Positions 17,223 to 64,000 of a DNA stretch of 64,000 nucleotides are shown in pieces. The translations under genes and the position numbers were made by a program. Every line of letters begins with the position of its first letter. Positions within the stretch are counted from its first letter, which is position 1. Source of the DNA: an uncultured Gammaproteobacteria bacterium (lineage in GTDB: Bacteria; Patescibacteriota; Patescibacteriia; UBA1558; GWA2-36-10). Where the stretch lies: contig CAZEWH010000002.1 in assembly GCA_964515785.1 (NCBI GenBank), positions 30,182 to 94,181 on the forward strand, given 5' to 3'. Below the pieces are notes generated by a model that saw only the letters and a program-made list of their open reading frames with translations, ran no database searches and was not told where the DNA came from.

Positions 17223-18271
17223 TGCCTTATCTTGAAATCATCAAAATATTTGTCCTAACAACCTTTAGCTTTGTGTTAGCTTTTGCTTTGACACCTGCTT
17301 GGACTCATGTTCTCTACAAATACAGATTAGTAAAAAATATTCGTAATGACGGTTCTACACCTTTATTTTCTCGTTTACACAAAGCCAAGGCTGGTACGCC
17401 AGTCATGGGCGGAGTTTTAATCTGGATGACAGTTTTGATTTTGTCTTTGGCGTTTTTCTTTATTTATAAAATTTGGCCTGATTCTTTTCTAGCTACTTTT
17501 AATTTTTTGACTAGAGAAAAAACATTATTACCTCTTGGTGCTTTGATTGCTTCTGCTTTGGTAGGATTACTTGATGATTGGTTCAATGTCAAACGACAGG
17601 GTGGTGGCAAAGGTGGCGGCCTCAATGTCAAGCATCGTTTATTGATTTATACTTTGATTGCTATCTTTGGTGCTTGGTGGTTTTATTTCAAACTTGACTG
17701 GGATATTATTCGTGTACCTTTTGTTGGTGCTTTTAATATGGGTTGGTGGTTTATCCCATTTTTTATTTTTATTTTGGTAGGCACTGCCTTTTCAGTCAAT
17801 GAAGCTGATGGTTTAGATGGTTTAGCTGGTGGCATTGTATTAGCAGCTTTTGCTTCATTTGGAGTGATTGCTTTTATGCAAGGCAATTATAATCTAGCTG
17901 CTTTTTGTGGAGTGATCAGTGGCGCTTTACTGGCATTTTTGTGGTTCAATATTACACCTGCTCGATTTTTTATGGGTGATACAGGATCGATGTCCCTGGG
18001 TATTGCCTTGGGTATTGTAGCTATGCTGACAGGCTATCCTTTATTACTTCCGATTATTGGTTTTTTATTATTATTAGAATCATTATCAGTTATTATTCAA
18101 TTACTTTCCAAAAAATTTCGTAAGAAAAAAGTATTTTTGTCAGCTCCTATTCATCATCATTTTGAAGCCAAGGGTTGGTCTGAAGCTAAGGTAGTTATGC
18201 GTTTTTGGATTATTGCTGCTGTTTTGTCTGTCATGGGTTTGATCATTGCAGTGATTGATCTTAGTTTATGA
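17222..18271 (+). CDS. mraY: Phospho-N-acetylmuramoyl-pentapeptide transferase
   Basis: NEADGLDGLAGG and MGDTGS motifs; 10-TM topology. Confidence 0.9.
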   Translation: MPYLEIIKIFVLTTFSFVLAFALTPAWTHVLYKYRLVKNIRNDGSTPLFSRLHKAKAGTPVMGGVLIWMTVLILSLAFFFIYKIWPDSFLATFNFLTREKTLLPLGALIASALVGLLDDWFNVKRQGGGKGGGLNVKHRLLIYTLIAIFGAWWFYFKLDWDIIRVPFVGAFNMGWWFIPFFIFILVGTAFSVNEADGLDGLAGGIVLAAFASFGVIAFMQGNYNLAAFCGVISGALLAFLWFNITPARFFMGDTGSMSLGIALGIVAMLTGYPLLLPIIGFLLLLESLSVIIQLLSKKFRKKKVFLSAPIHHHFEAKGWSEAKVVMRFWIIAAVLSVMGLIIAVIDLSL

Positions 18272-19671
18272 TAAATAATTTTAAAGACAAAAAAGTTTTG
18301 GTCATGGGTCTAGGGCTCCAGGGCGGAGCTTTGTCAGTTGTAAAATGGCTCCTTAAAAATAAAGCTATTATTACTATTACTGATATCAAAAATAGACAGC
18401 AGCTAAAAGTCACGCTAGACAAAATAAAAAAATTGCCAAGATCAAAAACTATAAAATATACTCTAAATAAACATGATTTAGCAGATTTTGAAGATCAGGA
18501 TTTGATTGTCCAAAATCCTGGAGTACCCAAAGAATCAAAGTATCTTGCCAAAGCAAGGCGTTTGGGTATCCCGATTGTCAATGAAGCTGTCATGTTTTTT
18601 GGTTTGTATAAAGGAAAAGTAATTGGTGTCACCGGCACACGCGGCAAATCAACTACAACTACTTTGATTCATAAGATATTAAAAATTAAAATCAAGCATA
18701 ATCAATTAGCAGGCAATATTGCTGTTAACCCTATGCTCAAAGCTTTAGATACTCTGAAGCCAACTAGTTGGCCAGTAATTGAATTGTCTTCTTGGCATTT
18801 AGAAAATTTGGCAGAATATAATCGCTCTCCCCATATTGCTGTGATTACCAATGTAATGATGGATCATCTAAATAGATATAAAAATTTTAACGAATATAAA
18901 CAAGCTAAGATTTTTAATATTCAGCATCAAAAATCTTCTGACTATGCAGTGCTTAACGCTGACAATAAATATACCAAAAATTTTGGCAAATATACTAAAG
19001 CAAAAACTTATTATTTTTCTTTAACAAAAAAAGTAAAGGGCTGTTATTTACAAAATAATTTTATTTATTTTAATAATAAGCCAGTCATGTCTACTAATAA
19101 AATAAAATTATTAGGCCAACATAATTTAGCCAATATTTTAGCAGCAGTGACGGTCGCCAAAATAATTGGTATTTCTAATACTAATATTGCCAAAGCAATA
19201 AATAATTTTCGAGGCGTAGATTATAGATTGCAATATATCAAAAAATATAAGCACGCTAAAATATATAATGATTCTACTTCTACAACTCCAGATGCAGGCC
19301 GAGCTGCTTTGCTAGCAGTACCTGCCAAAACTATTTTGATCACTGGCGGAGTAGATAAAGGTCTAGATTATTCATCTATGACCAAAGCTATAAAACAAAA
19401 AGCAAGTCTAGTAATTATTTTGTCTGGTAGTGTTAGCAAAAAATTGTTGCCAGAATTAAATAAAATTAAATTTAATAAAAAAAATATTATTTCTAATATA
19501 AGCTCGCTTAATAAAGCTTGGCAACTAGCTAAGAAAAATTTGAGCGACAAAGACAAGAGTATTTTATTTTCGCCAGCTGGTGCTAGCTTTAATATGTTTG
19601 ATAATGAATTTGATCGTGCTCGTCAATTTGATAAATTAGTCAATGGTACGCAGAAGAAAAAAAAGAAATAA
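18268..19671 (+). CDS. murD: UDP-N-acetylmuramoyl-L-alanine--D-glutamate ligase
   Basis: GVTGTRGKSTTTTLI P-loop; Mur ligase middle and C-terminal domains. Confidence 0.9.
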   Translation: MINNFKDKKVLVMGLGLQGGALSVVKWLLKNKAIITITDIKNRQQLKVTLDKIKKLPRSKTIKYTLNKHDLADFEDQDLIVQNPGVPKESKYLAKARRLGIPIVNEAVMFFGLYKGKVIGVTGTRGKSTTTTLIHKILKIKIKHNQLAGNIAVNPMLKALDTLKPTSWPVIELSSWHLENLAEYNRSPHIAVITNVMMDHLNRYKNFNEYKQAKIFNIQHQKSSDYAVLNADNKYTKNFGKYTKAKTYYFSLTKKVKGCYLQNNFIYFNNKPVMSTNKIKLLGQHNLANILAAVTVAKIIGISNTNIAKAINNFRGVDYRLQYIKKYKHAKIYNDSTSTTPDAGRAALLAVPAKTILITGGVDKGLDYSSMTKAIKQKASLVIILSGSVSKKLLPELNKIKFNKKNIISNISSLNKAWQLAKKNLSDKDKSILFSPAGASFNMFDNEFDRARQFDKLVNGTQKKKKK

Positions 19672-20803
19672 TTTATTAGCTTGGCTACTAGAGCCTTTTA
19701 TTTACCGTCGTGGCTTGGTGCAACCGCCTGATATGGCTCTGCTTATTATCATTGGCTTGTTATTGTTTTTGGGTTTGGTTTTTTTATCTTCAGCTTCTTC
19801 TTCATTGGCTTTTTTTAGCTATGGCGATACCTATTATTTTGTCAAACAACAATTATTTGCAATTTTTGTTGGTTTGATCGTTTTTTATATTTTGTTAAGA
19901 ATAAACTATAAACATTATCAAAAGCTTACGCCATTATTATTGATTGTATCTATTATAGTTTTATTATTACCATTGTTTGGACCTTTGCAAGGTGAGTTTG
20001 GTACTGCTCAATCTTGGATTGTGATTGGTGGACATAGTTTTCAGACCAGTGAAATAGCCAAATTATTTTTTATTTTATATTTAGCTGGTACTTTAAGTAA
20101 AAAAGGTACAGCTATCAAAAGTTTCAAAAACGGTACTTTGCCATTTATAATCATATTAGGGATTATTAGCGCTTTGATTGTAATGCAGCCAGATATTGGT
20201 ACTTTGAGTATTGTGGCCTTGACATCTTTGGCTTTGTTTTTTGCAGCTGGTGCTAAATTAAGCCATGTTTTTGCTATTATTATGGCTGGTTTAGCTGGTT
20301 TTTTTGCCCTTATTAAGATGGCCTCTTATCGTTTAGCTCGTATTACTGCTTGGTTGGACCCCAATGCCGATCCACAGGGTATTGGTTATCAGATCAAACA
20401 ATCTTTGATAGCTATTGGCTCAGGTGGTTGGTTTGGTATGGGTTTGGGTAGTTCACGACAAAAGTCTTATTTACCACATCCGGCAAATGATTCTATTTTT
20501 GCTGTTATTGCTGAAGAAATTGGTTTTATTTTTACTATTCTATTTATTATTTTGTTTTTTATCTTGATGTACCGCGGTTTTATTATCGTCAAAAATTCTA
20601 ATGATAATTTTGCTAAATTGATAGCTTTGGGCATCACAATCTGGATTTCTATTCAGTTTTTTATAAATGTAGCTGGTATTATAAAACTTTTACCTTTGAC
20701 GGGTGTGCCATTGCCTTTTGTATCTTTGGGGGGATCCAATCTAGTAGCAACGCTAGCAGCTATGGGCATCTTGGCAAATATTTCTAGATTAGCTAAACAA
20801 TAA
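19643..20803 (+). CDS. ftsW: SEDS-family peptidoglycan glycosyltransferase FtsW/RodA. The true start is possibly downstream of the track start.
   Basis: 10-TM SEDS pattern and a conserved PLP(L/F)VS(Y/L)GGSS-like C-terminal motif (LPLTGVPLPFVSLGGSNL). Confidence 0.85.
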   Translation: MVRRRKKRNNLLAWLLEPFIYRRGLVQPPDMALLIIIGLLLFLGLVFLSSASSSLAFFSYGDTYYFVKQQLFAIFVGLIVFYILLRINYKHYQKLTPLLLIVSIIVLLLPLFGPLQGEFGTAQSWIVIGGHSFQTSEIAKLFFILYLAGTLSKKGTAIKSFKNGTLPFIIILGIISALIVMQPDIGTLSIVALTSLALFFAAGAKLSHVFAIIMAGLAGFFALIKMASYRLARITAWLDPNADPQGIGYQIKQSLIAIGSGGWFGMGLGSSRQKSYLPHPANDSIFAVIAEEIGFIFTILFIILFFILMYRGFIIVKNSNDNFAKLIALGITIWISIQFFINVAGIIKLLPLTGVPLPFVSLGGSNLVATLAAMGILANISRLAKQ

Positions 20804-20805
20804 TT

Positions 20806-21834
20806 ATGAAAACACGTAAACCAAAAATTCTATTAGTTGGTGGAGGGACCTTAGGGTCAGTTAGTCCACTTTTGGCTATTGCTCAAAAATGTGAAGCTGA
20901 TTATTTGTTTGTAGGATCTGAGACTGGCCCTGAAAAGAAAATAGTTGAAGCTCATAATATCGATTTTAAAACCATCAAGAGTGGTAAATTACGACGTTAT
21001 TGGTCATGGCAAAATTTTGTAGATCTTTTTAGAATTAGAATTGCTTTTTGGCAATCTATGCTTATTATTTTAAAATTTAAACCAGATATTATTTTGACAG
21101 CCGGTAGTTTTGTAGCAGTACCGATGGCTTGGGCTGGCAAGTTAATGTATGTACCTGTCATTGTCCATCAACAAGATATTGTAGTTGGTCTAGCCAATAA
21201 ACTTATGGCGCCCTTTGCAAAAAAAATTACAGTTTCATTTCCACAACAACAAACAGATTTTAAGCGTAAAAAAGTAGTAGTAACTGGCAACCCAGTTCGT
21301 AGTTTAGAAACCAATGTCATAGAATATCGCCCGATCGTTGTGATCACTGGTGGCGGACAAGGTGCACGTGGTATGAATGAATTTATTATGCAATTTATTC
21401 CTAAGTTGACTGAGCATTATGAGGTACATCATATTTTGGGACATAATAATTATGATCAAAAACTTAATTTAGAAAATTATTTTGCTTATAAAGAAGTGGC
21501 AGGAAGTATGATGACTCTATTGGCTCGCTCTGAGATTATTATTTCTCGGGCCGGTATGTCGCTAATTACTGAAGCAGCCTCACTCAAAAAAGCTTTAGTA
21601 TTGATTCCTATGCCTGATAGTCATCAGGAGCGCAATGCAGCCTTTTTTGCCAAGAATAATGCGGCTATTATGGTCAAACAAGGTTCTGATAAGATTATGG
21701 AGCGCTATCTAGACAAATTGATACAAGGTGCTAATCTAAGAAAAGCTTTAGCAGAGAATTTATATAATCTTTACCCACATAATGCAGTTAATGACTATAT
21801 TATATTGATTAATAAAATATTAGGTAGAAAATGA
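20806..21834 (+). CDS. murG: Undecaprenyldiphospho-muramoylpentapeptide beta-N-acetylglucosaminyltransferase
   Basis: KILLVGGGTLGSVSPLLAIA N-terminal G-loop; GT28 architecture. Confidence 0.9.
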   Translation: MKTRKPKILLVGGGTLGSVSPLLAIAQKCEADYLFVGSETGPEKKIVEAHNIDFKTIKSGKLRRYWSWQNFVDLFRIRIAFWQSMLIILKFKPDIILTAGSFVAVPMAWAGKLMYVPVIVHQQDIVVGLANKLMAPFAKKITVSFPQQQTDFKRKKVVVTGNPVRSLETNVIEYRPIVVITGGGQGARGMNEFIMQFIPKLTEHYEVHHILGHNNYDQKLNLENYFAYKEVAGSMMTLLARSEIIISRAGMSLITEAASLKKALVLIPMPDSHQERNAAFFAKNNAAIMVKQGSDKIMERYLDKLIQGANLRKALAENLYNLYPHNAVNDYIILINKILGRK

Positions 21835-23198
21835 AGCTAGATTTTGACCAAATAAATAAAGTCTATTTAGCAGGTATTGGTGGCATTGGTTTGTCAGCAA
21901 TAGCTTATTATTTTTTGAATCTAGAAAAACAAGTTCTTGGATCTGATTTATTAGAAACTGAGATTACGCAAAGACTGACAGAAAAACATGTAGATATTTT
22001 TTTCCAACAAGTTGCTAAAAATTTGACAGCAGATATTGATTTGTTTATTTATTCTTCTGCTTTACCGGCTGACCATCCAGAAATAGCTAGGGCTCGGGAA
22101 ATGAAGATCCCAGTATTTAGTTATTTTGAATTTCTTGGCTTGTTGAGTAAGCAATACAAAACTATTGCTGTGACTGGTACCAACGGCAAAACAAGTGTGA
22201 CTGCTATGCTAGGACTGGCTTTGGAAAAAGCTGGGCTTGATCCAACAGTAATTGTCGGCAGTCTAGTACCTGCTTGGAATAGTAATTTTCGTTTGGGCAA
22301 ATCCAATATCTTAGTAGTCGAGGCTTGTGAATGGCAAGCTCATATGTTGGAAATAGATCCAAACATAATTGTCTTGACTAATATTGCTGAAGATCATTTA
22401 GATTTTTATAAAAATCTTGATGATATCAAGAATCATTTTCAAAAGTTTGTAGATAAATTACCTCAAGATGGTATTTTGTTTAAAAACATAGACGATGTAA
22501 ATAGTATTGATATAAAATCTAAAACTAAAATTATAAGTTTTGCTAAAGACAAACAAGCTGATTATTATTTTGATAATTTAGAAATCAGTAAAGCTGAACA
22601 AAAGTTTGATATATTTAAACATCAAGAATTATTTAATAATTTTAGTATAATTATTCCTGGTGAATATAATATTTATAATGCATTAGCTTGCGTTGCAGTA
22701 GCTGACACAGTCGGCGCTAATAAACATCAGATTTGGAATAGCTTGCATGAGTTTAATGGTACTTGGCGGCGTTTTGAAACTTTAGGTGAATACAAATCTA
22801 ATCTTGTAATTTCTGATTATGCTCATCATCCTGATTCTATCAAAGGCTTGCTCAAAGCCACTAAAGACTTTTATCCTGACAAAAAATTGATTGCAATTTT
22901 TCAGCCACATCATCACAATCGGACTCAGACTTTGTTGGATGATTTTGCTCTTAGTTTTGATTTAGCTGATCAAGCTATTATCTCTGAGATTTATCAGGTC
23001 TCTGGTCGTGAGGATCAAAAACACGAAGATGTATCTAGTAAAGATTTGGTAGATAAAATAAAAAACACCAAAGCTTGGTATGCCAAAGACTTTGCTGAAG
23101 TAAAAAATGTTTTTAAAAAAACAAATCCCGTTGATTCTGTGCTATTATTCATCGGAGCAGGGGATATAGATGATTTAGCTAGAGAATTAGTGAAATAA
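21831..23198 (+). CDS. murC: UDP-N-acetylmuramate--L-alanine ligase
   Basis: VYLAGIGGIGLSAIA and IAVTGTNGKTSVTAML motifs. Confidence 0.9.
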   Translation: MKLDFDQINKVYLAGIGGIGLSAIAYYFLNLEKQVLGSDLLETEITQRLTEKHVDIFFQQVAKNLTADIDLFIYSSALPADHPEIARAREMKIPVFSYFEFLGLLSKQYKTIAVTGTNGKTSVTAMLGLALEKAGLDPTVIVGSLVPAWNSNFRLGKSNILVVEACEWQAHMLEIDPNIIVLTNIAEDHLDFYKNLDDIKNHFQKFVDKLPQDGILFKNIDDVNSIDIKSKTKIISFAKDKQADYYFDNLEISKAEQKFDIFKHQELFNNFSIIIPGEYNIYNALACVAVADTVGANKHQIWNSLHEFNGTWRRFETLGEYKSNLVISDYAHHPDSIKGLLKATKDFYPDKKLIAIFQPHHHNRTQTLLDDFALSFDLADQAIISEIYQVSGREDQKHEDVSSKDLVDKIKNTKAWYAKDFAEVKNVFKKTNPVDSVLLFIGAGDIDDLARELVK

Positions 23199-53342: not shown

Positions 53343-54131
53343 ATGATAGTTTTCTCTTGTTTTGTACCACACTCTCCTCTGCTGATTCCTGAAGTTGGTC
53401 AAGACAAACTAACAGATTTAGAACAAACTAGCAAAGCTTATCAGGCTTTGGAGGATGATCTTTATACAGCCAAACCTGATGTGATTGTGGTTATTTCTCC
53501 TCATGCAAATGGACATGAGGATGCTTTTGTTATCAATCAACAGCCCAATTTTAGTGCTGACTTTAAAGATTTTGGTGATCTAGTGACCAAACTTGATTTT
53601 AGCAATGACACAGCTTTGGGTTATAAAATAAAAGAAGCAGCTGAGACTTCTTTGCCGATTTTTTTGACAGCCTCTGATAAACTTGATTATGGAGTGGGAG
53701 TGCCTTTGTATTTTTTGACTCAACATTTACAAAATATAAAAATTGTTCAGATTAGCTATGATGGTATGAAGACTGAAGATTATATCAAATTTGGTGAGTT
53801 ACTTAAAGAAGAAATTCATAAATATGACAAGCGTGTAGCTATAGTTGCTTCTGGTGATCTGTCTCATAGATTATCACAAGATTCTCCGGCTGGGTTTTCT
53901 CCTCAAGGCCAAGACTTTGATGATCAGATCAAAAAATATTTGGATAAAAAAGAGATCAATAAAATTATTGATCTAAAACCCGAGTTTGTAGAAGCGGCTG
54001 GAGAATGCGGCTATCGTTCGCTGTTGATTTTATTGGGAGCTATCAAAAATATAAATTTTGAACCACAGCAACTCAGCTACGAATCCCCTTTTGGTATTGG
54101 TTATTTAGTAGAGAATTTTGATTTAAAATAA
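53343..54131 (+). CDS. MEMO1/LigB-family protein (class III extradiol dioxygenase subunit B-like; AmmeMemoRadiSam system protein B-like)
   Basis: CFVPHSPLLIPEVG ... VISPHANGHED ... SGDLSHRL His-rich metal-site pattern and the size of the family. Confidence 0.5.
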   Translation: MIVFSCFVPHSPLLIPEVGQDKLTDLEQTSKAYQALEDDLYTAKPDVIVVISPHANGHEDAFVINQQPNFSADFKDFGDLVTKLDFSNDTALGYKIKEAAETSLPIFLTASDKLDYGVGVPLYFLTQHLQNIKIVQISYDGMKTEDYIKFGELLKEEIHKYDKRVAIVASGDLSHRLSQDSPAGFSPQGQDFDDQIKKYLDKKEINKIIDLKPEFVEAAGECGYRSLLILLGAIKNINFEPQQLSYESPFGIGYLVENFDLK

Positions 54132-54187
54132 TATATTATATTTTAAACTATCTCACTTTTTGGTGGGGTGTTTTTTGTTAGATTGAC

Positions 54188-54216
54188 AAAATATATATAA
54201 TACATTATAACTATAT
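54188..54216 (+). promoter_or_regulatory. Candidate promoter TTGACA-N17-TATAAC for the 147-aa gene
   Basis: Exact TTGACA at 54188-54193, about 45 nt upstream of an AAAAGGAG SD and the ATG at 54264. Confidence 0.35.
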
Positions 54217-54263
54217 TATAAAAAGTACCTTAACTTTATCCTAGTTTCAAAAAGGAGCGCAAT

Positions 54264-54707
54264 ATGGAGGGACCAGTAGTAGTTTTTTGGTTTTTGGTTG
54301 TCAGCGCTATTCTTTGGATAATTTTTGGCGATTTTATAAAATCGAACAAGAAATCCACTTCATCAGTCAAACAGAAGGAGGAGACTGTGAACAGTAATCA
54401 GTTACCGGTTGTGACACCGGACATTTTGCCAGCTCGTCGGTCTATTCTGGATTCGTATGGTTGGAATAATACGCCAACTGTGATATCATCTCCGGAACCA
54501 GAAGCAGTCTTAGCTAGTCATAATCCGCGTATAGCTCTTAAGGTTTTGAAAACTGCTCAGCAGGGTGAGTTTGCTCGCATTACTGCTCTGCAGATGGCTG
54601 GTGTAGCTAGTCAGGCCTTGCTCGTCAATCCACAGGTTCGTGAGATTGAGTTCAATCTCAAAGTTAGTGGTGGCTTTAAAGCCAAGGGCAAGGTGAGGTT
54701 ACGGTGA
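54264..54707 (+). CDS. Hypothetical protein (147 aa) with an N-terminal TM anchor
   Basis: AAAGGAG SD; N-terminal hydrophobic helix (VVFWFLVVSAILWIIFG). About 44% GC. No family recognised. Confidence 0.45.
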   Translation: MEGPVVVFWFLVVSAILWIIFGDFIKSNKKSTSSVKQKEETVNSNQLPVVTPDILPARRSILDSYGWNNTPTVISSPEPEAVLASHNPRIALKVLKTAQQGEFARITALQMAGVASQALLVNPQVREIEFNLKVSGGFKAKGKVRLR

Positions 54708-54731
54708 AATCCATAACCTTTAACCATATAA

Positions 54732-54772
54732 CCCCCTAAGTCGTTGGTATACGTCTAGGGGGTAATTTTTTT
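54732..54772. terminator. Bidirectional intrinsic terminator (cccccta ... taggggg + TAATTTTTTTA)
   Basis: 7-bp GC stem with a long loop then a T-run. Lies between the convergent 147-aa (+) and 86-aa (-) genes. Confidence 0.5.
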
Positions 54773-55031
54773 ATTTATCACTAATTAATTTAAAAAAGTA
54801 TTTCCACTTTTCTCCACCCTCGGCTAATTCTTTGGTATCATCTAAACATTTTTCTACAAAATTTTTGTCGTTGTCTTTGCAGATTTTAAAAATAGAATTG
54901 CGCTTGAACCCTGGTATACCCAGTTCATCGATAATACGTAAAGCCAAATCCTGCCACTGATAAGCAGGGGGCTTTTTCACAGGCTTTTTGTCTTCTTTTT
55001 TTTCTTGAAATATATCGGCTATTTGTTGCAT
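54771..55031 (-). CDS. Hypothetical small soluble protein (86 aa), K/E-rich
   Basis: AT-rich like the host. No motifs recognised. Confidence 0.35.
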   Translation of the reverse strand: MQQIADIFQEKKEDKKPVKKPPAYQWQDLALRIIDELGIPGFKRNSIFKICKDNDKNFVEKCLDDTKELAEGGEKWKYFFKLISDK

Positions 55032-55050
55032 ATTGTAATTATAGCAGAGA

Positions 55051-55079
55051 TTGACAAAAAATCATAAATATTTTATAAT
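55051..55079 (+). promoter_or_regulatory. Consensus sigma70-type promoter TTGACA-N17-TATAAT upstream of def
   Basis: Exact hexamers at 55051-55056 and 55074-55079. Confidence 0.45.
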
Positions 55080-55086
55080 ATAAGCT

Positions 55087-55584
55087 ATGTTAAAAATAAC
55101 TAAATATCCAGCCGAAATTTTACGTCAAAACGCTAAGCCAATTAGCGAATTTGATGATGCTTTGAAAAAATTGGCTGAAGATATGGCCAAGATCATGTAT
55201 GAAGATGATGGTATTGGTCTGGCTGGGCCACAAGTATCTTTGTCCAAAAATATTATTATAATTGGTGATCAAGACGGCAAATCTTGGCAAGCTTATATAA
55301 ATCCAGTGATTACTTATATTTCTAAAAACACTACTACTACTGAAGAAGGTTGCTTATCTTTACCTGATATATTTGGTAATGTGACTCGTCCCAAAAAGAT
55401 TAGATTCAAATATCAAGATCTTGATGGCAAGACTCATAAGGCTAAAGCTAAAGGTCTAGATGCTATAATTGTCCAACATGAGATAGATCATCTCAACGGC
55501 GTGCTGTTTATTGATAGAGCTGATAAAATAACTAAAGGCCAAGAAATTTTAGATAGTTTAAAAAATAATGCAAACAATAAATAA
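55087..55584 (+). CDS. def: Peptide deformylase
   Basis: GIGLAGPQV, EGCLSLPD and QHEIDHLNG motifs. Confidence 0.9.
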   Translation: MLKITKYPAEILRQNAKPISEFDDALKKLAEDMAKIMYEDDGIGLAGPQVSLSKNIIIIGDQDGKSWQAYINPVITYISKNTTTTEEGCLSLPDIFGNVTRPKKIRFKYQDLDGKTHKAKAKGLDAIIVQHEIDHLNGVLFIDRADKITKGQEILDSLKNNANNK

Positions 55585-56482
55585 AAAAATTATCTTTTGG
55601 GGCACTCCCCTTTTTGCATTGCCAAGTCTCAAAGTTTTGCATGATTTAGATTTAGTAGCTGCTGTAGTTACTCAAGCAGATAAACCAGCTGGCCGTGGAA
55701 AAAAAATATTAGCTAGCCCTGTCAAAGAATTTGCTAAAAATAATAATATAGATATTTTAGAGCCTCTTAAATTAGATGAGGCTTTTATTGATGATTTAGA
55801 AAAATATTTGCCAGCCAATTTTGTGGTAGTAGCTTATGGTAAGATAATTCCTCAAGAAATTTTGGATTTATCTAAGATGCCAGCTATAAATATTCATCCC
55901 TCTATGCTCCCAATTTTGCGTGGGCCATCCCCTATTCAAACTGCCATTTTAAGGGGTTTTGACTCTACTGGAGTATCTTTGATGCAATTGGATAAAAAGA
56001 TGGACCATGGGCCAATTTTAGGCCAAATTCAGGTCAAAATAGGGCCAAATGAGGACTATTTTGACCTATCTGAGCGTTTGGCTAAACTAGGAGCAGATTT
56101 ACTCAAAAATAATATTGTCTCTTATCTAGAGTGTCAGCTCAATGCCAAATTTCAAGATGATACAAAAGCTACTTTTTGTCAGATGATTGCCAAAGCAGAT
56201 GGTCAAATAAGCTGGCAAAAAACCGCTCAAGAATTGCACAATCAAGTACGAGCCTATATAGAATGGCCAGGTAGTTTTGTTAAATTAAATAATTTAGATC
56301 TAAAAATTATTCAAACTAAAATTTCAGATCAAGATTTAGAGCCTGGTAAAATTTTAATAAATAATAATAAATTATTTATAGGTACTAATAATAAATCTCT
56401 AGAAATATTAAAAATTCAACCGGCTGGTAAAAAAGTCATGACAGCTGATGAATTTATACGAGGTTATAAAAATAAATTATAA
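55568..56482 (+). CDS. fmt: Methionyl-tRNA formyltransferase
   Basis: IIFWGTP ... N-terminal formyltransferase domain (HPSMLP...RG) and a C-terminal domain; def-fmt synteny. Confidence 0.9.
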   Translation: MQTINKKIIFWGTPLFALPSLKVLHDLDLVAAVVTQADKPAGRGKKILASPVKEFAKNNNIDILEPLKLDEAFIDDLEKYLPANFVVVAYGKIIPQEILDLSKMPAINIHPSMLPILRGPSPIQTAILRGFDSTGVSLMQLDKKMDHGPILGQIQVKIGPNEDYFDLSERLAKLGADLLKNNIVSYLECQLNAKFQDDTKATFCQMIAKADGQISWQKTAQELHNQVRAYIEWPGSFVKLNNLDLKIIQTKISDQDLEPGKILINNNKLFIGTNNKSLEILKIQPAGKKVMTADEFIRGYKNKL

Positions 56483-56484
56483 TA

Positions 56485-56516
56485 TCAAAAAACCGGGCCT
56501 AGGCCCGGTTTTTTAT
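56485..56516. terminator. Bidirectional intrinsic terminator (A-run, ccgggcc-ta-ggcccgg, T-run)
   Basis: Perfect 7-bp GC palindrome flanked by A7 and T6. Lies between convergent fmt and the S41 peptidase gene. Confidence 0.7.
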
Positions 56517-58063
56517 TTTAATAAATTTTGAGCTTTTTGTAATTGCAGATCAGTTGTTTCACTATTTTCAATAATATAGTCTGGTTCAAAGCCAATTTGT
56601 TCTACAGATAAGCCAGTTGGTGTTAGCCATTCCAAAATAGTATATTTCAAAGATGAGTTATCTGCAAAAGATACTAAAGATTGTCCAGTACCTTTACCTT
56701 GAGTAGTTGCACCAACTACTTGAGCTGCTCCATTTTCAGATAAAGCAGTAGTAAATATTTCTGCAGCTGAAGCAGTATTATTATTTACTAATATAATAGT
56801 TGGTAGATCAAGTACTATACCTAATTTTGATTTATGTTCAATTGTTTTATAAGGATATTTTTCTTGGACTAACATTACATTTCTTGGTACCCAATAATCT
56901 GCCAGATCATAAGCCGCAAAAGTATAACCTCCAGGATTATTTCTCAGATCAATAATAATTCCTTGAGTTGTATCATCAATAATTTCTTGTCTAATTTTAT
57001 CAAACTCATTTCTTAAATTAACAGAAAAAGTATTGATTTTAAAATAAGCAATATTATTGTTTAATTTTTTACCATTGACCATAGGTACAGTAATTTTGTC
57101 TCTGATAATGCTCACGGTAAATTTTTTTTGGCTACTAGGTCGATAAATTTCCAAAACAACTTTGCTACCTCGTGGGCCTTTAATTAAACTAATACTGTCT
57201 TGCAAACTAAAGCCAGTGATACTTATTCCATCTACTGTCCAAACTTCGTCGCCTGGTTTGAGACCAGCTGCTTCAGCTGGACTTTTTGGTAATGGCGCAG
57301 AAATTATTAGTTGTTTGTTTTTTGTTTCTACCATGGCACCAATACCCTCTACTGAACCTTCAAGTTCATTATAAAATTCATTAGTTTTTTGTGGGCTAAA
57401 AAATTGGGTATAAGGATCATCAAAAGCATCGGCCATACCTTTTAAGGAGCTGTAATACATATTAGTAATATCTACTTTGTCAGATTGGAAATAATTGTCT
57501 TTAAGTATATCCCAAGTTTGCCAATAAGTAGAAAAATCTAAATTTTCGTCTGATTTATTTAATCTAAAATTAGGCTGACTAGTAATAGCAATAGTACTTA
57601 ATTTGTCAGCGCGTATTTCTAAAGCTAATTTTTTCAAAGTTTTCAAACCTGCTTTGCCATTGGCTATAAAATAACGGTTGTTATCCAATGGATTTATATA
57701 CCAAGCTTCACCATTTTCTTCTACCTGTAAGAGGAATTTTCCACGCATCTCAAAAGTGAGCTTATAGTCTATGTTATTAATATTATCTTCACTTAAAATA
57801 CTGGCTAAGTTTTTGTTATCAATACCTTGACCAAAATTTTTCAATAAATATGAAACAGCTTTACCGTCTTTTAGTAAAAAACGTTTGTTGGTATCTGGAT
57901 CAACGTACCAATAATTTTGATCTAAATCATCAGCTGAGGTAATTATGCTGCCAGCATATGTCTGAGCAGTAGATTTACCTTCAATAATAATAAGTGCTTT
58001 AGAATTTTCAGCATAAAGAAAAATAGCTACAAAAGCTATTAAAGCAATTAAAATTTTTCGCAT
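56513..58063 (-). CDS. C-terminal processing peptidase (S41, tail-specific protease) with PDZ domain, secreted
   Basis: Signal peptide; PDZ (GLKPGDEVWTVDGISITG); S41 catalytic region (NNNTASAAEIF ... Lys). Confidence 0.85.
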   Translation of the reverse strand: MRKILIALIAFVAIFLYAENSKALIIIEGKSTAQTYAGSIITSADDLDQNYWYVDPDTNKRFLLKDGKAVSYLLKNFGQGIDNKNLASILSEDNINNIDYKLTFEMRGKFLLQVEENGEAWYINPLDNNRYFIANGKAGLKTLKKLALEIRADKLSTIAITSQPNFRLNKSDENLDFSTYWQTWDILKDNYFQSDKVDITNMYYSSLKGMADAFDDPYTQFFSPQKTNEFYNELEGSVEGIGAMVETKNKQLIISAPLPKSPAEAAGLKPGDEVWTVDGISITGFSLQDSISLIKGPRGSKVVLEIYRPSSQKKFTVSIIRDKITVPMVNGKKLNNNIAYFKINTFSVNLRNEFDKIRQEIIDDTTQGIIIDLRNNPGGYTFAAYDLADYWVPRNVMLVQEKYPYKTIEHKSKLGIVLDLPTIILVNNNTASAAEIFTTALSENGAAQVVGATTQGKGTGQSLVSFADNSSLKYTILEWLTPTGLSVEQIGFEPDYIIENSETTDLQLQKAQNLLK

Positions 58064-58081
58064 ATATTTGTTATTATTTAT

Positions 58082-59593
58082 TTAAACTTTCTTTTTTTCT
58101 GTGACCAAAAATCCCATGTATTTACCGAGCATCAAGCGAGTTTGAGCGTCAACTGCTGGGATAGAACCAAAAATAATCATAGTAATAGGGAAAATAATCC
58201 ATTGCAAAAACATTAGTAGATAGCGGACAATTTTGCTCCAAAATTTTGTTTTCATTTTTTTGGGTATAGGTGGTAGTATAATTACACTCATCAAGGCTAC
58301 AATAAATAGACCAATCATACCAAAGCGCATCAAATTTTCTAGTAAGAGTGGAGCATTTTGGGTTAAGACTGTGGTAGCTGTATTTTTTTCTGCCATCCAC
58401 AATGGTAATTGTCCCATGATTAGAATAATAATTGGTGCTGTAGCCCAAGAATAAACACCTTCTGTTTGATTCCAAATATAAACTATTTTCTTTTTAAAAG
58501 GAATTTGTTTATTTTTTTTGAAACGCCAGACCATATAAGGAAAGTGCTCTACTCCCCAAGCCCAACGGCGCATTTGTTTGTATTGATTTTTTAAGCTACG
58601 CCATAAGTTACCAACATAAACAGTATTCATTGAAACTGGAATATGCATCGGAGCTACTTGATAATCACCATTATAATGAATCAAGCATTGTAAAAAAATA
58701 CGAGAATCCTCTGTTACAATATTATTTTGCCAAAAACCAACATCAACTATAGCCTGCCAACTCATACTATGTGAAGAAAAAGTAAAAAGTCTGTCAGGGC
58801 GAGCTAAATCAGTCAACAACCAAAAAGTTGTAGAGTTGGCTACCACTCGAGTGATCATATCTGATTCCCAGACATTGTTATGATAAAAAGCCATAGGCTG
58901 AAAACTAGCTCTGTATGGATTTGGGTGGGATATAAATTTGTGGGTAAGATAAGCAAAATAATCGGGGTGAGTAATAGTATCTATATCAAAAGCTGAAACT
59001 ATTAGTTTTTTGTAATCAATTCCCCAATTGTCAACATATTTTTTTGTCTCATGTCCAGCGTGGTATAGATTAGAACCTTTACCAGGAATTTCATCTGGCA
59101 GTCCACTAGGGTGGACAGTAATTAAAATGTCTTTAAAATATTTACTATATTTTTCTTTTATTTTGTTAGAAATTGATAGGAATTCATCTTTGAATTTTTC
59201 TTCACCAGCTAAAATAATAACTAATTTACTTAGGTCATAATTACTTTTTCTAAAATTATCAAAAGTAATATCAACTATTTCATAAGATTCACCAGCAGTT
59301 GGTAAAAATATAAGATGATAGTATCCAGACCAGGTCTGATGTTTATCTTTTAGATATTGCCACCAATCAGTTTTAGCAGCTTGTCTATATTGCGACCAAG
59401 ATATTAATAAAAAAATTAATAAATATAAAATTCTCAAAATCCAATAAATATCAAAAGCAATAATAATATAAATGCCTGTTAGTGGTTGCCAAATAGAAAT
59501 AAAAATAACTATAGCAAAAGTCAACCAGACAGCCAGTCCTGGAACAATTTCTAAAAATCTATAAAAATAATAATTTTTATGAGTATTGGTCAT
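58082..59593 (-). CDS. Membrane-embedded processive GT2 beta-glycosyltransferase (cellulose/chitin/hyaluronan synthase-like)
   Basis: TM helices flanking a cytoplasmic GT-A domain with DxD (FDID), TED (TEDSRI) and QxxRW (QMRRWAWG) motifs. Confidence 0.7.
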   Translation of the reverse strand: MTNTHKNYYFYRFLEIVPGLAVWLTFAIVIFISIWQPLTGIYIIIAFDIYWILRILYLLIFLLISWSQYRQAAKTDWWQYLKDKHQTWSGYYHLIFLPTAGESYEIVDITFDNFRKSNYDLSKLVIILAGEEKFKDEFLSISNKIKEKYSKYFKDILITVHPSGLPDEIPGKGSNLYHAGHETKKYVDNWGIDYKKLIVSAFDIDTITHPDYFAYLTHKFISHPNPYRASFQPMAFYHNNVWESDMITRVVANSTTFWLLTDLARPDRLFTFSSHSMSWQAIVDVGFWQNNIVTEDSRIFLQCLIHYNGDYQVAPMHIPVSMNTVYVGNLWRSLKNQYKQMRRWAWGVEHFPYMVWRFKKNKQIPFKKKIVYIWNQTEGVYSWATAPIIILIMGQLPLWMAEKNTATTVLTQNAPLLLENLMRFGMIGLFIVALMSVIILPPIPKKMKTKFWSKIVRYLLMFLQWIIFPITMIIFGSIPAVDAQTRLMLGKYMGFLVTEKKKV

Positions 59594-60681
59594 TATAAAT
59601 TATATTTATTTGCTTCAATACCTACAGCTTGTGATATATGACTAAAATTATTTTTTTGTAATAATTTGTCTAGATCTTTGTTTATTTTTTTGATACTACA
59701 TGGGCCGTTATAAATAAAACCAGTAGCAATTTGTAAAAGATGAGCTCCTGCTTTGATTTTGTCATAAGCATCAGTACCTGAAAATATACCACCTACTCCA
59801 ATTATTTTAAATTTATCTTCAGAGTTTTTATATAAATAACTAATAACTTTATTGGCATGTTGAGTAATTACTTGGCCAGATACTCCGCCTGGTTTATTTT
59901 TATTTGCTGATTTTAAATTAAGATGAGATTTTTCTTTAGCCAAATTTACAGCTACAATAGCAGCTATATTATATTGCTTGCTCAGAGAAATTATATCGTC
60001 TAATTGCTGTTTATTCAGGTCATAGCTTATTTTGAGCCAGATAGGTTTATTATTTTTATTAAGTTCAGTAATTTTTTGTAAAATTGGCTCAAGAGTGGCT
60101 CGTTTTTGTAAGCCAGCAAAATCTTCTATATTGGGACAACTTAGATTCAAAGTAATAATATCTCCATGAGATTCTAAAATTTTGAAAGATTCTGCATAAT
60201 CTGCAGCTGCAGCTTGCATGGCTATTTTGCTGGTTTTGGCAATACTAATAGATAACAAACCTCTATAATTTTTTGTTTTAGATAATTTATTAGCTACAGC
60301 TTGAGCGCCAATATTGGGGATGCCATAGTAAACTACTATGCCCTTGTCTTTAGGAAGACGCCAAAGTCTAGGTTTGGGATTACCTGGTTGAGCTTGATGT
60401 GTCACAGAACCAAGCTGGGCCCAAGCAAAATCAAAAGCACTCCAGGCAGTAGCTGCTGTAGCATTTTTATCCATACCAGCTGTCAGACCAATTGGAGTCC
60501 TAAAATACAATCCCCAAATTTTTTGTTTGATTCTGGGTGAAGTAAAATTTTTAGTTCTAAATACTAAATTATTTAAAAATTGGCTTTTGTCTAAAATAGA
60601 CAAAAGCTTGAGAGTAAAATTATGGACTTTTTCTGGATCAAAGCAAAAAAGTATTGGTCTGATAATTTTTTGATAAAGCAT
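59593..60681 (-). CDS. pyrD: Dihydroorotate dehydrogenase (quinone), class 2
   Basis: Membrane-association N-terminal helix (YQKIIRPILFCFDPEKVH), FMN-binding barrel, GGIFSG...ATGFIYNGP. Confidence 0.85.
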   Translation of the reverse strand: MLYQKIIRPILFCFDPEKVHNFTLKLLSILDKSQFLNNLVFRTKNFTSPRIKQKIWGLYFRTPIGLTAGMDKNATAATAWSAFDFAWAQLGSVTHQAQPGNPKPRLWRLPKDKGIVVYYGIPNIGAQAVANKLSKTKNYRGLLSISIAKTSKIAMQAAAADYAESFKILESHGDIITLNLSCPNIEDFAGLQKRATLEPILQKITELNKNNKPIWLKISYDLNKQQLDDIISLSKQYNIAAIVAVNLAKEKSHLNLKSANKNKPGGVSGQVITQHANKVISYLYKNSEDKFKIIGVGGIFSGTDAYDKIKAGAHLLQIATGFIYNGPCSIKKINKDLDKLLQKNNFSHISQAVGIEANKYNL

Positions 60682-60726
60682 AAGTAGCTATAATCTAGCA
60701 GAAAATTGTCTATTTTTCAAGGTCTA

Positions 60727-61389
60727 TTATATAGGGAGTGCTTCTATTACTAGTCGCTGATCAGTAGTATAGACAGGGTGACAGGTAAATAAAGTCAATT
60801 TTTCTTGGCCAGTGTCTTGTAAAATACTAATTTCATCAGGCTCGACAATTCGGATATTGTTTACTTGATATTTATATTCTTGATCTTGCCAAAATACTTG
60901 GATAATGTCCCCTGTTTGGACTTTATCTAGATTGAAAAAAGTATTTGGTCCAGAAGTATAAAGATAGCGATGACCACTAAGTACCATATTTTTGTAGCCA
61001 TCCGGATTATCTGGAGTACCAGAGCCAGGGATGTGCCAAGCACCTTGTAGTAAAGCATTTTTTTCATTATCACCAAAAACTATAGCCATATCAACACCGA
61101 TAGATGAAATAACAACACGATATTGATCTTGGTTAATATTTTCAACTTGATTTTCTTCTTCTGTTTGTTCCTTTACTATTTGTTCTTCTTGATTTTCTTT
61201 GTCTTGAGACAAATCACTTGGCATGTTGTCTGGATTTTTTTGTGAAGTTTCATAATCAATATTAAGACCGGTAGTAGTAGATAATACATCTTGATGGCTA
61301 GTTGTTTGAGTTTGCCAAATAAAAAATAAAGCCACTAGTCCCAAGACTATTAGTAGATAACTTGTTATTTTGGCATTTTTATAAGACAT
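60727..61389 (-). CDS. Sortase-family cysteine transpeptidase
   Basis: N-terminal anchor; catalytic His (VLSGHRY), TLFTCHP cysteine motif, downstream Arg. Confidence 0.75.
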   Translation of the reverse strand: MSYKNAKITSYLLIVLGLVALFFIWQTQTTSHQDVLSTTTGLNIDYETSQKNPDNMPSDLSQDKENQEEQIVKEQTEEENQVENINQDQYRVVISSIGVDMAIVFGDNEKNALLQGAWHIPGSGTPDNPDGYKNMVLSGHRYLYTSGPNTFFNLDKVQTGDIIQVFWQDQEYKYQVNNIRIVEPDEISILQDTGQEKLTLFTCHPVYTTDQRLVIEALPI

Positions 61390-61460
61390 AAATTAATTTT
61401 ATACTATAGGGCTCCGTAAATCTACGGAGCCCAAGTAGTTTTTATTTTGTAACAAAGATT

Positions 61461-64000
61461 TTAAGTCTTGCTATAAAACTTTATTTTTAAATATACGCCA
61501 GACCAAATCATTAAGCAGGCTATCATCCACAAATAATTATAATTTGGCATTTCTGGCCCACCAGTAGCTGGTAATTCTTTAAAACCAAGGACTTCTGGGG
61601 TTGGTTCAATCTTGACACCCAAAACTTCTTCTATTAAACAAAGGCTAGAACAACCATCACCATTACTGATATTACCATCATCACATTGTTCTAGGTCTTG
61701 GTTTATCATATTATCGCCACAATATGGTGATGGAGTTTGATTGCCACTACCATAGAAAAATCCTCCACCACCTCCACCACCTTCAGTGGTACAAGTCGCC
61801 GAACAACCATCACCGTCTTCATTATTGCCGTCATCACATTGTTCACTTGATTGATTTACGTATCCGTCACCACAAAATGGTTCTGGAGGTTCTGTATATT
61901 GGTTTAAGAAATAAATAATTGGATTTTGCATTTCACCATCGATAGTCACGGTCATAGAGCCATCACTTTCCAAGATACCATTACCTTCACCGCCTGTTTG
62001 GTTCCAATTGGCTTGCATTTCTTCAGTAACATTGTATGTGTCATAAGGCAAGTCAATAAATACACAGCCATTTTCAGCTAGATATTCATTATCACCGATA
62101 TAGAACATCCAACCAGGTACAACTGGTTCACCATTATCTAGTATTCCATCACCGTTTAAATCTTCTTGTTTACAAATAGTCAAAGTACCTTCGAGTGGTG
62201 GTTCTTCTTCAATTTGGCATTGAGCAGAACAACCATCACCGTCTTCATTATTGCCGTCATCGCATTGTTCCCATTCTTGATTTATAATACCATCACCACA
62301 ATATGGTTCTTCAATAATTTCTTGATAGTTACCAAAGTTGACTTCTGGGTCTTGGCCGCCTTCTAGGAGGACTTGTTGGCAGATTGGTGTTGTATTTATC
62401 CAATCATCTCTTATTTCTTCACAAACATGATAATAACCATTAGGTACATCTTCAAAACAATAACCATCTTCGCCAGTTTCAGTTTCATAAGTTTCTTCAG
62501 CTAGATTATAACAATGAATAGCTCGGACACCATCAACATCATAGCCATCTGCAACCCTACCTTCAAAGTCATCAGGGTTAGTAATGTCTACTAATTTGAT
62601 ATATTTAGCCCAAGCAAGTGAACCAAGATCAAAAGTACCATCTAGGCAAGAAGTGCCAATATCTTCCCAAGTATTGCCATCTTGTGAAGCATATACCTGA
62701 ACATATTCTGGATAAGCATCACAGCTAGGACTACCATAAGTAGTTTCAATAACTTCGACGTCGTTTCCGTCTCCGTTTTCTATTAGATTATCAAAGCCTA
62801 GGATCAAAGTACCGCCAAAACCTAGAGATACAAAATTGATAGTATCATTGTCTTGAGCCTCACCTAGAGCATTGTTTGGATCACTACGTTCTGGTAAGAC
62901 AGGTGTTCCGTTATTACGGAGACCTTGTTCAAAGTCAACAACAGTGTCAGCCCATTGATCACCCTCTTCACACATTAATTTTTCAGCCATAGTGATTCCC
63001 CAGCCAGCAATATTATAATCATCATTATCATATTCTCCATTTTGATCAGCATCGTAAAATTTCATACCACAAATATTATTTTCGCAATCTTCGACAATTT
63101 CCCATTCTGTATAATATCCGTCATCAGCTGTAGTAGTTGTTAACCAGAAAAATGATTTATTATCATCTTCAGTCCAAACTTCATCATTACCAGCATTATA
63201 TTGGCCAACACCAGTACCATCAAAGCCATTTTCTAATCGATTATTGCCAGGATAATCATTTGATTCATCACTGACTTGTCCAGTGACAGTTGCATTATAA
63301 AATTCTATATTACCATGGACATGTTCTTTGTCGTGTCCTGGGTGTGTACCATACATTACAACTCGCAAACCATCTTCAGATCTTTGGACAGCTAGACCAG
63401 GTACATCTTCATAGCCAGAAATATCTGGATCAAAATAATGGTTACCGTTCCAGTATAAAGCTATCCAAACATTATTTGGAATAACATATGAATCAGAGCC
63501 AAGATAAATATCATCGGTCATATCACTAGCAGGATCAAAGTTAATAACTTCTTCCATGTTTATTTTAGCTACAACTAAATCATTGCATTCTGGGATAACA
63601 TATTGACAGTGTTGAGAACAACCAGGCAGATCAGAGTCACATTGTTCCCATTCTTGATTGATTTCTCCGTCACCACAATATGGATCATATGGTGGTTCTT
63701 CTGGATCAGCAATTTTACAAAGGCGGACATTATCAACATAAGTTCCATAACTATCACTTGGCCCAATATCTTCCAGAGCTATATTTGTATTTGTGCTATC
63801 AGCAATAAATGTATAATTAGATTGTGTCCAATCTTCTTGAGCTAAAGGTGCGCTACCTGTGGCTGGGCCATTGGTAGCTACTTGAGTGCCATCTACTTTG
63901 ACTGCTAGATGATTTTGTTCAGCACCAATATTGTGGCGTGGTGCAAAAGACCAAAATAGTTTGTATTCTGCACCTTCTTCAGTAACTACATCTTGGTGGA
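61461..64000 (-). CDS. Large cell-surface protein with Myxococcus-type cysteine-rich repeats (CGDGxxNQxxEQCDDGNxxxGDGCSxxC) and a C-terminal LPATG sorting signal. The N-terminus lies beyond the window end; the track start at 63557 is an internal Met.
   Basis: The frame stays open from 63557 to 64000 with no stop. It contains a fourth CGDGEINQEWEQCDSDLPGCSQHC repeat and a ...YGTYVDNVRL lectin-like segment. The C-terminus is LPATGG + hydrophobic stretch + KIKFYSKT. Confidence 0.75.
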   Translation of the reverse strand, partial: HQDVVTEEGAEYKLFWSFAPRHNIGAEQNHLAVKVDGTQVATNGPATGSAPLAQEDWTQSNYTFIADSTNTNIALEDIGPSDSYGTYVDNVRLCKIADPEEPPYDPYCGDGEINQEWEQCDSDLPGCSQHCQYVIPECNDLVVAKINMEEVINFDPASDMTDDIYLGSDSYVIPNNVWIALYWNGNHYFDPDISGYEDVPGLAVQRSEDGLRVVMYGTHPGHDKEHVHGNIEFYNATVTGQVSDESNDYPGNNRLENGFDGTGVGQYNAGNDEVWTEDDNKSFFWLTTTTADDGYYTEWEIVEDCENNICGMKFYDADQNGEYDNDDYNIAGWGITMAEKLMCEEGDQWADTVVDFEQGLRNNGTPVLPERSDPNNALGEAQDNDTINFVSLGFGGTLILGFDNLIENGDGNDVEVIETTYGSPSCDAYPEYVQVYASQDGNTWEDIGTSCLDGTFDLGSLAWAKYIKLVDITNPDDFEGRVADGYDVDGVRAIHCYNLAEETYETETGEDGYCFEDVPNGYYHVCEEIRDDWINTTPICQQVLLEGGQDPEVNFGNYQEIIEEPYCGDGIINQEWEQCDDGNNEDGDGCSAQCQIEEEPPLEGTLTICKQEDLNGDGILDNGEPVVPGWMFYIGDNEYLAENGCVFIDLPYDTYNVTEEMQANWNQTGGEGNGILESDGSMTVTIDGEMQNPIIYFLNQYTEPPEPFCGDGYVNQSSEQCDDGNNEDGDGCSATCTTEGGGGGGGFFYGSGNQTPSPYCGDNMINQDLEQCDDGNISNGDGCSSLCLIEEVLGVKIEPTPEVLGFKELPATGGPEMPNYNYLWMIACLMIWSGVYLKIKFYSKT

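Follow-up and report, generated by a model that had tools for sequence, protein, structure and literature searches.

Beyond a few cultivated Saccharibacteria, in which type IV pili and further close-range surface adhesins have been implicated, little is known of how patescibacteria recognize other cells and hold on to them (PMC11623550). The 64,000-nucleotide (nt) stretch of contig CAZEWH010000002.1 analysed here, called the window in what follows, ends inside a gene for a cysteine-rich protein with a C-terminal sorting signal, and a sortase gene lies just downstream on the same strand. The question is what this surface protein is once complete, whether the neighbouring sortase anchors it and what it would do at the cell surface. 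As judged from its SerRS, whose named relatives at 70-75% identity are all Patescibacteria (Parcubacteria, Magasanikbacteria, Falkowbacteria, Komeilibacteria, Buchananbacteria and Kuenenbacteria), the source organism is a patescibacterium, a member of the candidate phyla radiation (CPR). The analysis makes it probable that the locus encodes a sortase together with its dedicated substrate, a Sec-exported, wall-anchored modular surface adhesin. It would then be a complete candidate close-range adhesin with its anchoring enzyme in an uncultivated Parcubacteria-type lineage.

The minus-strand frame of the surface-protein gene was followed through the window. It stays open from position 63998 down to the stop codon at 61463-61461, that is 845 sense codons without an internal stop. 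The window therefore holds the C-terminal 845 codons and the stop (61461..64000, minus strand), the first 461 codons lying beyond its end; residues of the part inside the window are numbered below as fragment residues. The 698-aa open reading frame (ORF) found in the mechanical ORF list (61461..63557) begins at an internal methionine of this longer frame. A preliminary description of the same DNA had already proposed that this start was internal, and indeed the frame is open upstream of the annotated methionine up to the window end. Among the homologues retrieved were an entry with exactly the 698-aa sequence (P0002) and a protein of 1317 aa that is 86% identical (P0001); the window fragment aligns with the latter from its residue 468 on. 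The contig carrying P0002 (L001, scaffold_6149 of ERZ23499124) differs from the window by one single-nucleotide polymorphism. It contains a run of 10 N at 1487-1496, inside the gene and exactly at the window end (64000), and its gene calls give two products of 481 and 698 aa, divided at this gap. Further assemblies (L056, L058 and L060) were retrieved with the exact sequence of the neighbouring DHODH protein. All three hold a single unbroken ORF of 1306 aa whose DNA agrees with that of the window at every one of the 2540 shared nt, and their junction at the window end reads ...DGDHSTRIHQDVV... L056 is 100% identical to window positions 53738..64000 over 10,263 nt and continues for another 6.7 kb; it carries the complete ORF, including the N-terminus that had been predicted to lie outside the window. 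The exact 1306-aa protein is present in NCBI, JGI and ENA on five contigs, the longest of 371 kb. Its ORF starts with MKKLIKKGLYFVSVFSLIVWSTGFTPQALA, where a Sec signal peptide was recognized by eye. An exact 48-mer across the window end gave zero matches in metagenome_contigs; this negative reflects the collection and not absence of the junction, because the JGI contig Ga0115656_1001286 (L058) contains the 48-mer.

These observations bear on the reading that the gene is broken, as a pseudogene or by a frameshift, and that only the 698-aa C-terminal piece is made. The two calls of 481 and 698 aa in one deposited assembly (L001) speak for it. However, the division coincides exactly with the 10-N run of that scaffold, three other assemblies, 100% identical to the window, hold the unbroken 1306-aa ORF, and a 698-aa product would be without a signal peptide. 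An upstream stop codon or frameshift had been named beforehand as the observation that would count against a longer protein, and none occurs in the three independent assemblies. The pseudogene or split-gene reading is refuted for these assemblies by the N gap and the intact ORF, and we give it virtually no credence. The catalogued 698-aa "protein" is an artefact, because the 10-N scaffold gap made the gene caller split the gene. As the truncated 698-aa entry is the representative of the 90% cluster of the 1306-aa protein, the real product is hidden; in practical terms, a scaffold gap has yielded a catalogued fragment that masks the full-length protein. The protein had been called giant. It is large and does extend beyond the window, but its 1306 aa make it large rather than giant.

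The C-terminus of the surface protein reads LPATGGPEMPNYNY-LWMIACLMIWSGVYL-KIKFYSKT, in agreement with the sorting signal (LPATGG, hydrophobic stretch, KIKFYSKT) first noticed there. This cell-wall sorting signal occupies 61464..61574 on the minus strand, with LPATG at 61560-61574, a 9-residue spacer, the 15 hydrophobic residues of LWMIACLMIWSGVYL at 61488-61532 and the basic tail KIKFYSKT at 61464-61487. Orthologues likewise end with LPATGG and a hydrophobic stretch, followed by QKKN. A six-frame scan of the window found no other ORF with a C-terminal LPXTG-type signal. Just before LPATG, at 61575-61640 (EEVLGVKIEPTPEVLGFKE), a short (E/K)VLGxK motif is present in two copies. Many family members (P0008, P0011, P0019, P0020, P0021 and P0082) have the same motif ahead of LPXTG, and relatives that lack LPXTG contain it as well; it may represent an extended sorting signature or a linker signature.

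The sortase gene (60727..61389, minus strand; 220 aa and a stop) starts 71 nt downstream of the substrate stop. The two genes had been described as adjacent with a 70-nt spacer; the adjacency and the intact gene with its TLFTCHP motif hold, and the spacer is one nucleotide longer. The product begins with a membrane anchor, which is followed by an acidic linker of low complexity and by the catalytic domain. The hydrophobic segment ITSYLLIVLGLVALFFIW (residues 8-25, 61315..61368) was assigned as a signal anchor by eye, and a hydrophobic N-terminus is found in 17 of the 17 aligned relatives. The catalytic domain (residues 90-218, 60736..61122) contains His140 (60970-60972), Cys203 within TLFTCHP (60781-60783) and Arg212 (60754-60756), all three invariant in an alignment of 17 sequences (A1). 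Absence of sortase activity, for example through a sortase pseudogene in relatives, had been listed as an observation that would undo the proposal; the gene is intact here and the catalytic triad is kept throughout the alignment. The family assignment is firm (Pfam Sortase, 86.6 bits for a cut-off of 26.6; TIGR01076, 74.5 for 39.35). The best PDB relatives are class C sortases (E 2e-15). The protein nevertheless scores under every NCBIfam class cut-off: class C 87.9 for 160, SrtD 80.4 for 140, class E 68.3 for 160, class D 67.8 for 165 and class F 24.1 for 166. A DP[WFY] lid motif and a C-terminal transmembrane helix are absent from the sequence, which ends 8 residues past Arg212; close relatives also end right after the catalytic domain. 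Almost all named relatives belong to Patescibacteria and, on its profile scores, the clade is an unclassified one, outside the curated libraries.

The 71-nt spacer contains a perfect 10-bp GC-rich hairpin (61409..61432, no strand assigned; RNA fold z-score -4.8). Its stem is kept in a 72%-identical orthologous locus (L002, 12154-12181), where loop and flanks differ, and it is absent from the more distant L004. The hairpin was not called as a terminator, since a U-tract is missing from the gene strand and the scan flags the opposite strand only. It may be an attenuator or an mRNA-stability element setting the ratio of substrate to sortase.

In order to see whether the pairing of the two genes is conserved, sortase loci were collected from genome and metagenome collections, the genome_contigs scan giving 2 loci, and L002, the contig of the orthologue P0003, was added. 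A narrower alignment (A2) was used for this locus search because A1 was too diverse. Fifteen loci were counted, each with a sortase of at least 40% identity and no less than 1.5 kb of sequence upstream of it. In 10 of the 15, the gene directly before the sortase gene is a same-strand ORF that ends in an LPXTG-type signal, the motifs being LPATG, LPETG, IPDTG, LAATG and VPNTG. The substrates differ in their domains, which include VWA, cadherin-like/Big_9, SdrD_B, DUF11 and FN3-like domains, and DUF4215 cysteine repeats recur among them. A different arrangement is seen in distant sortase loci (28-44% identity), where a conserved ORF of about 315 aa lies on the opposite strand just upstream of the sortase gene (L015, L017, L018, L020, L028-L032, L036, L038, L041-L043, L046, L047, L049 and L053). 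The 'LPVAA' and 'IPVAA' matches in this ORF are a product of the loose motif filter and were not counted; the protein is probably not a substrate.

We then examined the architecture of the surface protein. The full-length protein has 41 cysteines and an isoelectric point (pI) of 4.05. The preliminary description had seen in it Myxococcus-type cysteine-rich repeats, at least three in the 698-aa part and a fourth upstream. Profile searches agree: TIGR02232 (cut-off 20.8) scores 122.1 bits on the window fragment and 118.1 bits on the full-length protein, where it matches four stretches, and DUF4215 gives 73.3 bits (cut-off 27). Three canonical CGDG..NQ..EQCDDGN..DGDGCS..C modules, matched by both models, lie at fragment residues 567-594 (CGDGIINQEWEQCDDGNNEDGDGCSAQC, 62217..62300), 709-736 (CGDGYVNQSSEQCDDGNNEDGDGCSATC, 61791..61874) and 760-787 (CGDNMINQDLEQCDDGNISNGDGCSSLC, 61638..61721); they are repeats 2 to 4 in the order of the protein. 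Repeat 1, CGDGEINQEWEQCDSDLPGCSQHC, is a degenerate module at fragment residues 108-131 (63606..63677), upstream of the annotated methionine, and corresponds to the fourth TIGR02232 stretch. All these features, and those given below for this protein, are on the minus strand. Several glycine-rich linkers had also been mentioned; a run of seven glycines is present, read directly from the sequence at 61761..61781, and it is single.

Upstream of repeat 1, a lectin-like segment ending in '...YGTYVDNVRL' had been pointed out. It is the C-terminal end of a choice-of-anchor-C/DUF642-like jelly-roll domain (residues 393-553 of the full-length protein), of which the C-terminal part lies in the window at 63723..63998. 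TIGR04362 aligns with this domain over profile positions 1-156 of 157 with an E-value of 2.5e-11 and 44.1 bits, the cut-off being 120; this E-value over the whole profile indicates homology despite the score below the cut-off. DUF642 (cut-off 27) gives 15.7 bits with the surface protein and 25 with the orthologue P0001. Further upstream, in the N-terminal part outside the window (L001, L056), a DUF11 domain (PF01345) is found at residues 92-192 with 31.6 bits for a cut-off of 24.6. The N-terminal 460 residues (L056 5301-6680, outside the window) also show two recurrent unannotated elements, seen in many homologues. One, just after the signal peptide, has the motif 'K-I/Y-T-I/V-C-H ... G-H-F ... 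H'. The other is a domain of about 170 aa with 'AHKIVC..DLPNW...W.FQWG...GYIPF...SAE.WC..DVLNYDNYD...YYCVAFNV'.

For the middle of the fragment, an AlphaFold2 model of residues 300-562 was obtained with a pLDDT of 91.6 and a pTM of 0.86, and compared with known structures by Foldseek. CBM32/discoidin domains, the discoidin domain of muskelin among them (3f2z, 2j7m, 4a41 and 4pqq), were matched with a probability of 1.0 and a best E-value of 8e-5 (3f2z), at TM-scores of 0.5-0.6 normalised to the target. SdrD structures (4jdz, 8vdk and 10ps) were also matched (E 4e-4), with TM-scores that are low because the query consists of two nested domains. Since many patescibacterial homologues also align over both flanks of the CBM32-like part, the region was read, from the fold matches and these alignments together, as a stalk domain into which a domain of carbohydrate-binding type is nested. 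An SdrD-B-like beta-sandwich is thus split into an N-terminal half (62955..63080) and a C-terminal half (62319..62507), both assigned from AlphaFold2 and Foldseek, and the CBM32/discoidin-like domain (fragment 349-497, 62508..62954, from Foldseek) is inserted between them. In Pfam searches F5_F8_type_C reaches 16.4 bits on the CBM32-like domain for a cut-off of 28.2, and SdrD_B is weak on the surface protein, with 15.5 bits for 29.7; the homologue P0005 and the L004 protein exceed the SdrD_B cut-off. A second stalk module lies at 61884..62213. Pfam gives no match on it, and we infer that it is SdrD-B-like from a resemblance to SdrD-B/CnaB by motif only.

The CBM32-like part shares about 50% identity with domains that stand in tandem in Bacteroidia proteins secreted by the type IX secretion system (T9SS). 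Such an identity is high across two phyla and could, from the sequences, reflect horizontal transfer of an extracellular module. Hundreds of T9SS (Por_Secre_tail) proteins of Bacteroidia contain relatives of this domain, as two to four copies in a row.

Between repeat 1 and the first SdrD-B-like domain lies a 173-aa beta-sandwich without annotation, which we call domain X (fragment 134-306, residues 595-767 of the full-length protein, 63081..63599; AlphaFold2 pLDDT 87.6). Neither the surface protein nor 15 relatives gave a Pfam or NCBIfam match in this region. A profile search against PDB sequences returned nothing under E=1, and Foldseek searches of the model against PDB and BFVD found no significant neighbour. 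Domain X matches only 313 clusters among 1.84 billion representatives. In homologues it is always preceded by the degenerate NQEWEQCD cysteine repeat. A relation to the CBM32-like domain was also considered, and profile-profile comparison found none.

The locus was then compared between relatives. It is present in three lineages whose SerRS is 89-92% identical. P0003 is collinear with the surface protein except that domain X (residues 593-763) has been cleanly exchanged for a PA14 domain. In the L006 orthologue one more stalk module is inserted, which measures about 108 aa and is 38% identical to the second stalk module. Among the relatives, the surface protein is 64-83% and the sortase 67-75% identical, as compared to 78-92% for the flanking genes; the surface protein and the sortase diverge faster than their neighbours. 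More widely, surface-protein relatives end in LPXTG, in multi-pass transmembrane tails, or in neither. The near relatives form a natural series of module-swapped alleles that could be compared with host range.

The confident model of domain X, its lack of a database neighbour, its rarity, the cysteine repeat coupled to it and the PA14 domain at the same place in a sister strain led us to ask whether it is a ligand-binding fold that has not been described before and is confined to surface proteins of Patescibacteria, and whether domain X and the nested CBM32-like domain could be exchangeable host-specificity cassettes of a sortase-anchored adhesin. We put this forward tentatively, as a possibility that is for now doubtful.

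Starting from the intact gene, its motifs and domains, the conserved pairing and the modular variation, a working scheme can be proposed in which the anchoring chemistry, the disulfides and the binding are taken over from what is well established for sortase systems and for the folds that were matched. The N-terminal signal peptide MKKLIKKGLYFVSVFSLIVWSTGFTPQALA would direct the 1306-aa pre-protein to export by Sec, and the C-terminal hydrophobic segment and lysine-rich tail would hold it in the membrane. The membrane-anchored sortase would cut LPATG between Thr and Gly, using Cys203 with His140 and Arg212, and transfer the protein to lipid II, which would lead to a covalent link to peptidoglycan. 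The lipid II acceptor is available because MraY, MurD, FtsW, MurG and MurC are encoded in the window, in a division and cell-wall cluster that is followed by a GDSL-like lipase/acylhydrolase (17222-23198). The mature, very acidic protein (pI about 4) would form a stalk of beta-sandwich modules, DUF11 and two SdrD-B-like domains, separated by the four small four-cysteine repeats, probably disulfide-bonded, and by the Gly7 hinge. This stalk would bear three candidate ligand-binding modules, the choice-of-anchor-C/DUF642-like jelly roll, domain X and the nested CBM32/discoidin-like domain. The most likely role of the protein would be to bind the cell to glycans, either of a host cell or of some other surface, and module exchange between strains would tune specificity. 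Attachment to a host is plausible because of the CBM32-like, PA14-swappable and choice-of-anchor modules and of the fast modular divergence.

Several points weigh against this scheme. Five of the 15 related sortase loci are without an adjacent substrate. Curated hidden Markov models (HMMs) of the LPXTG anchor give no match for the surface protein (Pfam Gram_pos_anchor at E<=0.1; NCBIfam at E<=1), and the orthologues score 13.4 and 17.5 bits on LPXTG-anchor HMMs for a cut-off of 20, although at the level of motifs the signal is there. The signal peptide and the transmembrane segments were assigned by eye. The choice-of-anchor-C, F5/8-type-C and SdrD_B sequence scores are all under their curated cut-offs. 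As the sortase is under all class cut-offs, its substrate preference cannot be read from its class.

The class C matches call for a closer look, because a class-C-like sortase could polymerise the protein head to tail through lysine-to-LPXTG isopeptide links before anchoring it, and the surface protein would then be a pilus or fibre subunit. Both the best NCBIfam class and the best PDB matches of the sortase are class C, and the surface protein has CnaB/SdrD-B-like modules, which are typical of pilins. However, the class C score is 87.9 for a cut-off of 160, and the sortase, ending 8 residues after the catalytic arginine, has neither the DP[WFY] lid nor the C-terminal transmembrane helix. No YPK pilin motif is present in all 1306 aa, and the locus has one substrate gene and one sortase, with no minor pilins. 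The pilus reading was rejected on the missing lid, helix and YPK motif and on the single substrate gene, and we regard it as very unlikely. A structural role in the envelope, as an S-layer-type coat protein covering the cell rather than binding a partner, would suit a large, very acidic (pI 4.05), repeat-rich and wall-anchored protein, and CPR cells are reported to have S-layers (S-layer genes are mentioned in PMC4736985). Yet the Pfam and NCBIfam searches of the surface protein matched no S-layer-type domain, and carbohydrate-binding-type folds dominate (CBM32-like, choice-of-anchor C, and PA14 in the sister strain). Module swapping between 90%-related strains also suits a specificity determinant better than a lattice subunit. 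A coat function thus appears unlikely to us, if less so than a pilus.

With a similarly small likelihood, the protein could be a wall-anchored tether that captures glycans, holding polysaccharides or particles bearing them for nutrient scavenging, with no role in host attachment. Glycoside hydrolases and proteins of polysaccharide utilisation often contain CBM32-like and PA14-type modules, and the nested domain shares about 50% identity with parts of T9SS-secreted proteins of Bacteroidia. On the other hand, a catalytic domain for such a task is found neither in the surface protein nor in the adjacent genes (SecA, sortase, DHODH, GT2 and S41 peptidase). Sequence alone does not separate glycan capture from adhesion to host glycans. 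Overall, we favor a sortase-anchored adhesin as the probable function of the locus.

Systems of this type have precedents within the radiation. In Peregrinibacteria, a sortase A has been described along with large cysteine-rich proteins that are exported and weakly similar to the Myxococcus repeat (Anantharaman et al. 2016, PMC4736985). More than half of CPR genomes are reported to encode sortases (fam000526), and the DsbA-like and VKOR families show enrichment in CPR (Meheust et al. 2019, PMC6744442). As sortases and large cysteine-rich exported proteins have already been described in CPR, we take the locus as an unusually clean case of a known type of system. Like the Peregrinibacteria system, it combines a large signal-peptide-bearing cysteine-rich protein with Myxococcus-repeat similarity and a sortase in the same genome, and a link to extracellular disulfide-forming enzymes is shared with the CPR systems of the literature. 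Unlike in Peregrinibacteria, the repeat match is strong (118-122 bits) and not 'very weak', and the surface protein itself has a sorting signal and adjoins the sortase gene in a conserved pair. What stands outside the curated libraries is domain X, the family of the nested CBM32-like domain and the unclassified sortase clade.

The best-known comparison is with Staphylococcus aureus sortase A and MSCRAMM adhesins such as SdrD. Shared features are a Sec signal peptide, an LPXTG/hydrophobic/basic C-terminus, a membrane-anchored Cys/His/Arg transpeptidase and, by Foldseek, an SdrD-B-like stalk carrying candidate ligand-binding domains. In contrast to S. aureus sortase A, the enzyme of the window fits no curated class and is nearer in sequence to classes C and D than to A. 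Its substrate differs from SdrD in having no A-domain or SD-repeat region and in carrying cysteine repeats between the stalk modules, and the two genes are adjacent, which distinguishes the locus from the S. aureus system. As for the cysteine-rich acidic repeat of Myxococcus, the four copies match the model, with four cysteines each and an acidic D-D-G-N/D-G-D-G core. They differ from it in their low copy number (4), in serving as spacers between unrelated domains instead of forming long arrays, and in the degenerate form of the first copy, which in every case goes together with domain X. The TIGR02232-type repeat family is also found in adhesive proteins elsewhere (bioRxiv 10.1101/2023.03.06.531300). 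By Foldseek, the nested domain shares the jelly-roll fold of CBM32/discoidin domains, including those of Clostridium perfringens GH84C and GH89 and the C-terminal domain of a Bacteroides chitobiase (3f2z); unlike these, it scores under the Pfam cut-off, is nested in another domain and has its close family in common with Bacteroidia T9SS proteins. The jelly roll near the window end resembles choice-of-anchor C (TIGR04362)/DUF642, a family that occurs with differing C-terminal anchors, in its full-profile alignment. With 44 bits for a cut-off of 120, it is a remote relative and not a member by the NCBI criterion.

The wider surroundings of the locus were also inspected. ARAGORN found no tRNA or tmRNA gene over the whole 64 kb. 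SecA lies directly upstream of the surface-protein gene in L056 (2252-4999, the surface gene starting at 5301) and in L002. On the P0001 contig two genes stand between them, one encoding a 687-aa protein with faint VWA_2 and CobT_C matches and the other a 699-aa AAA_5 ATPase. At the other end of the window, positions 1736-3757 encode a 673-aa subtilase (Peptidase_S8) with FG-GAP repeats, probably also a secreted or surface protein.

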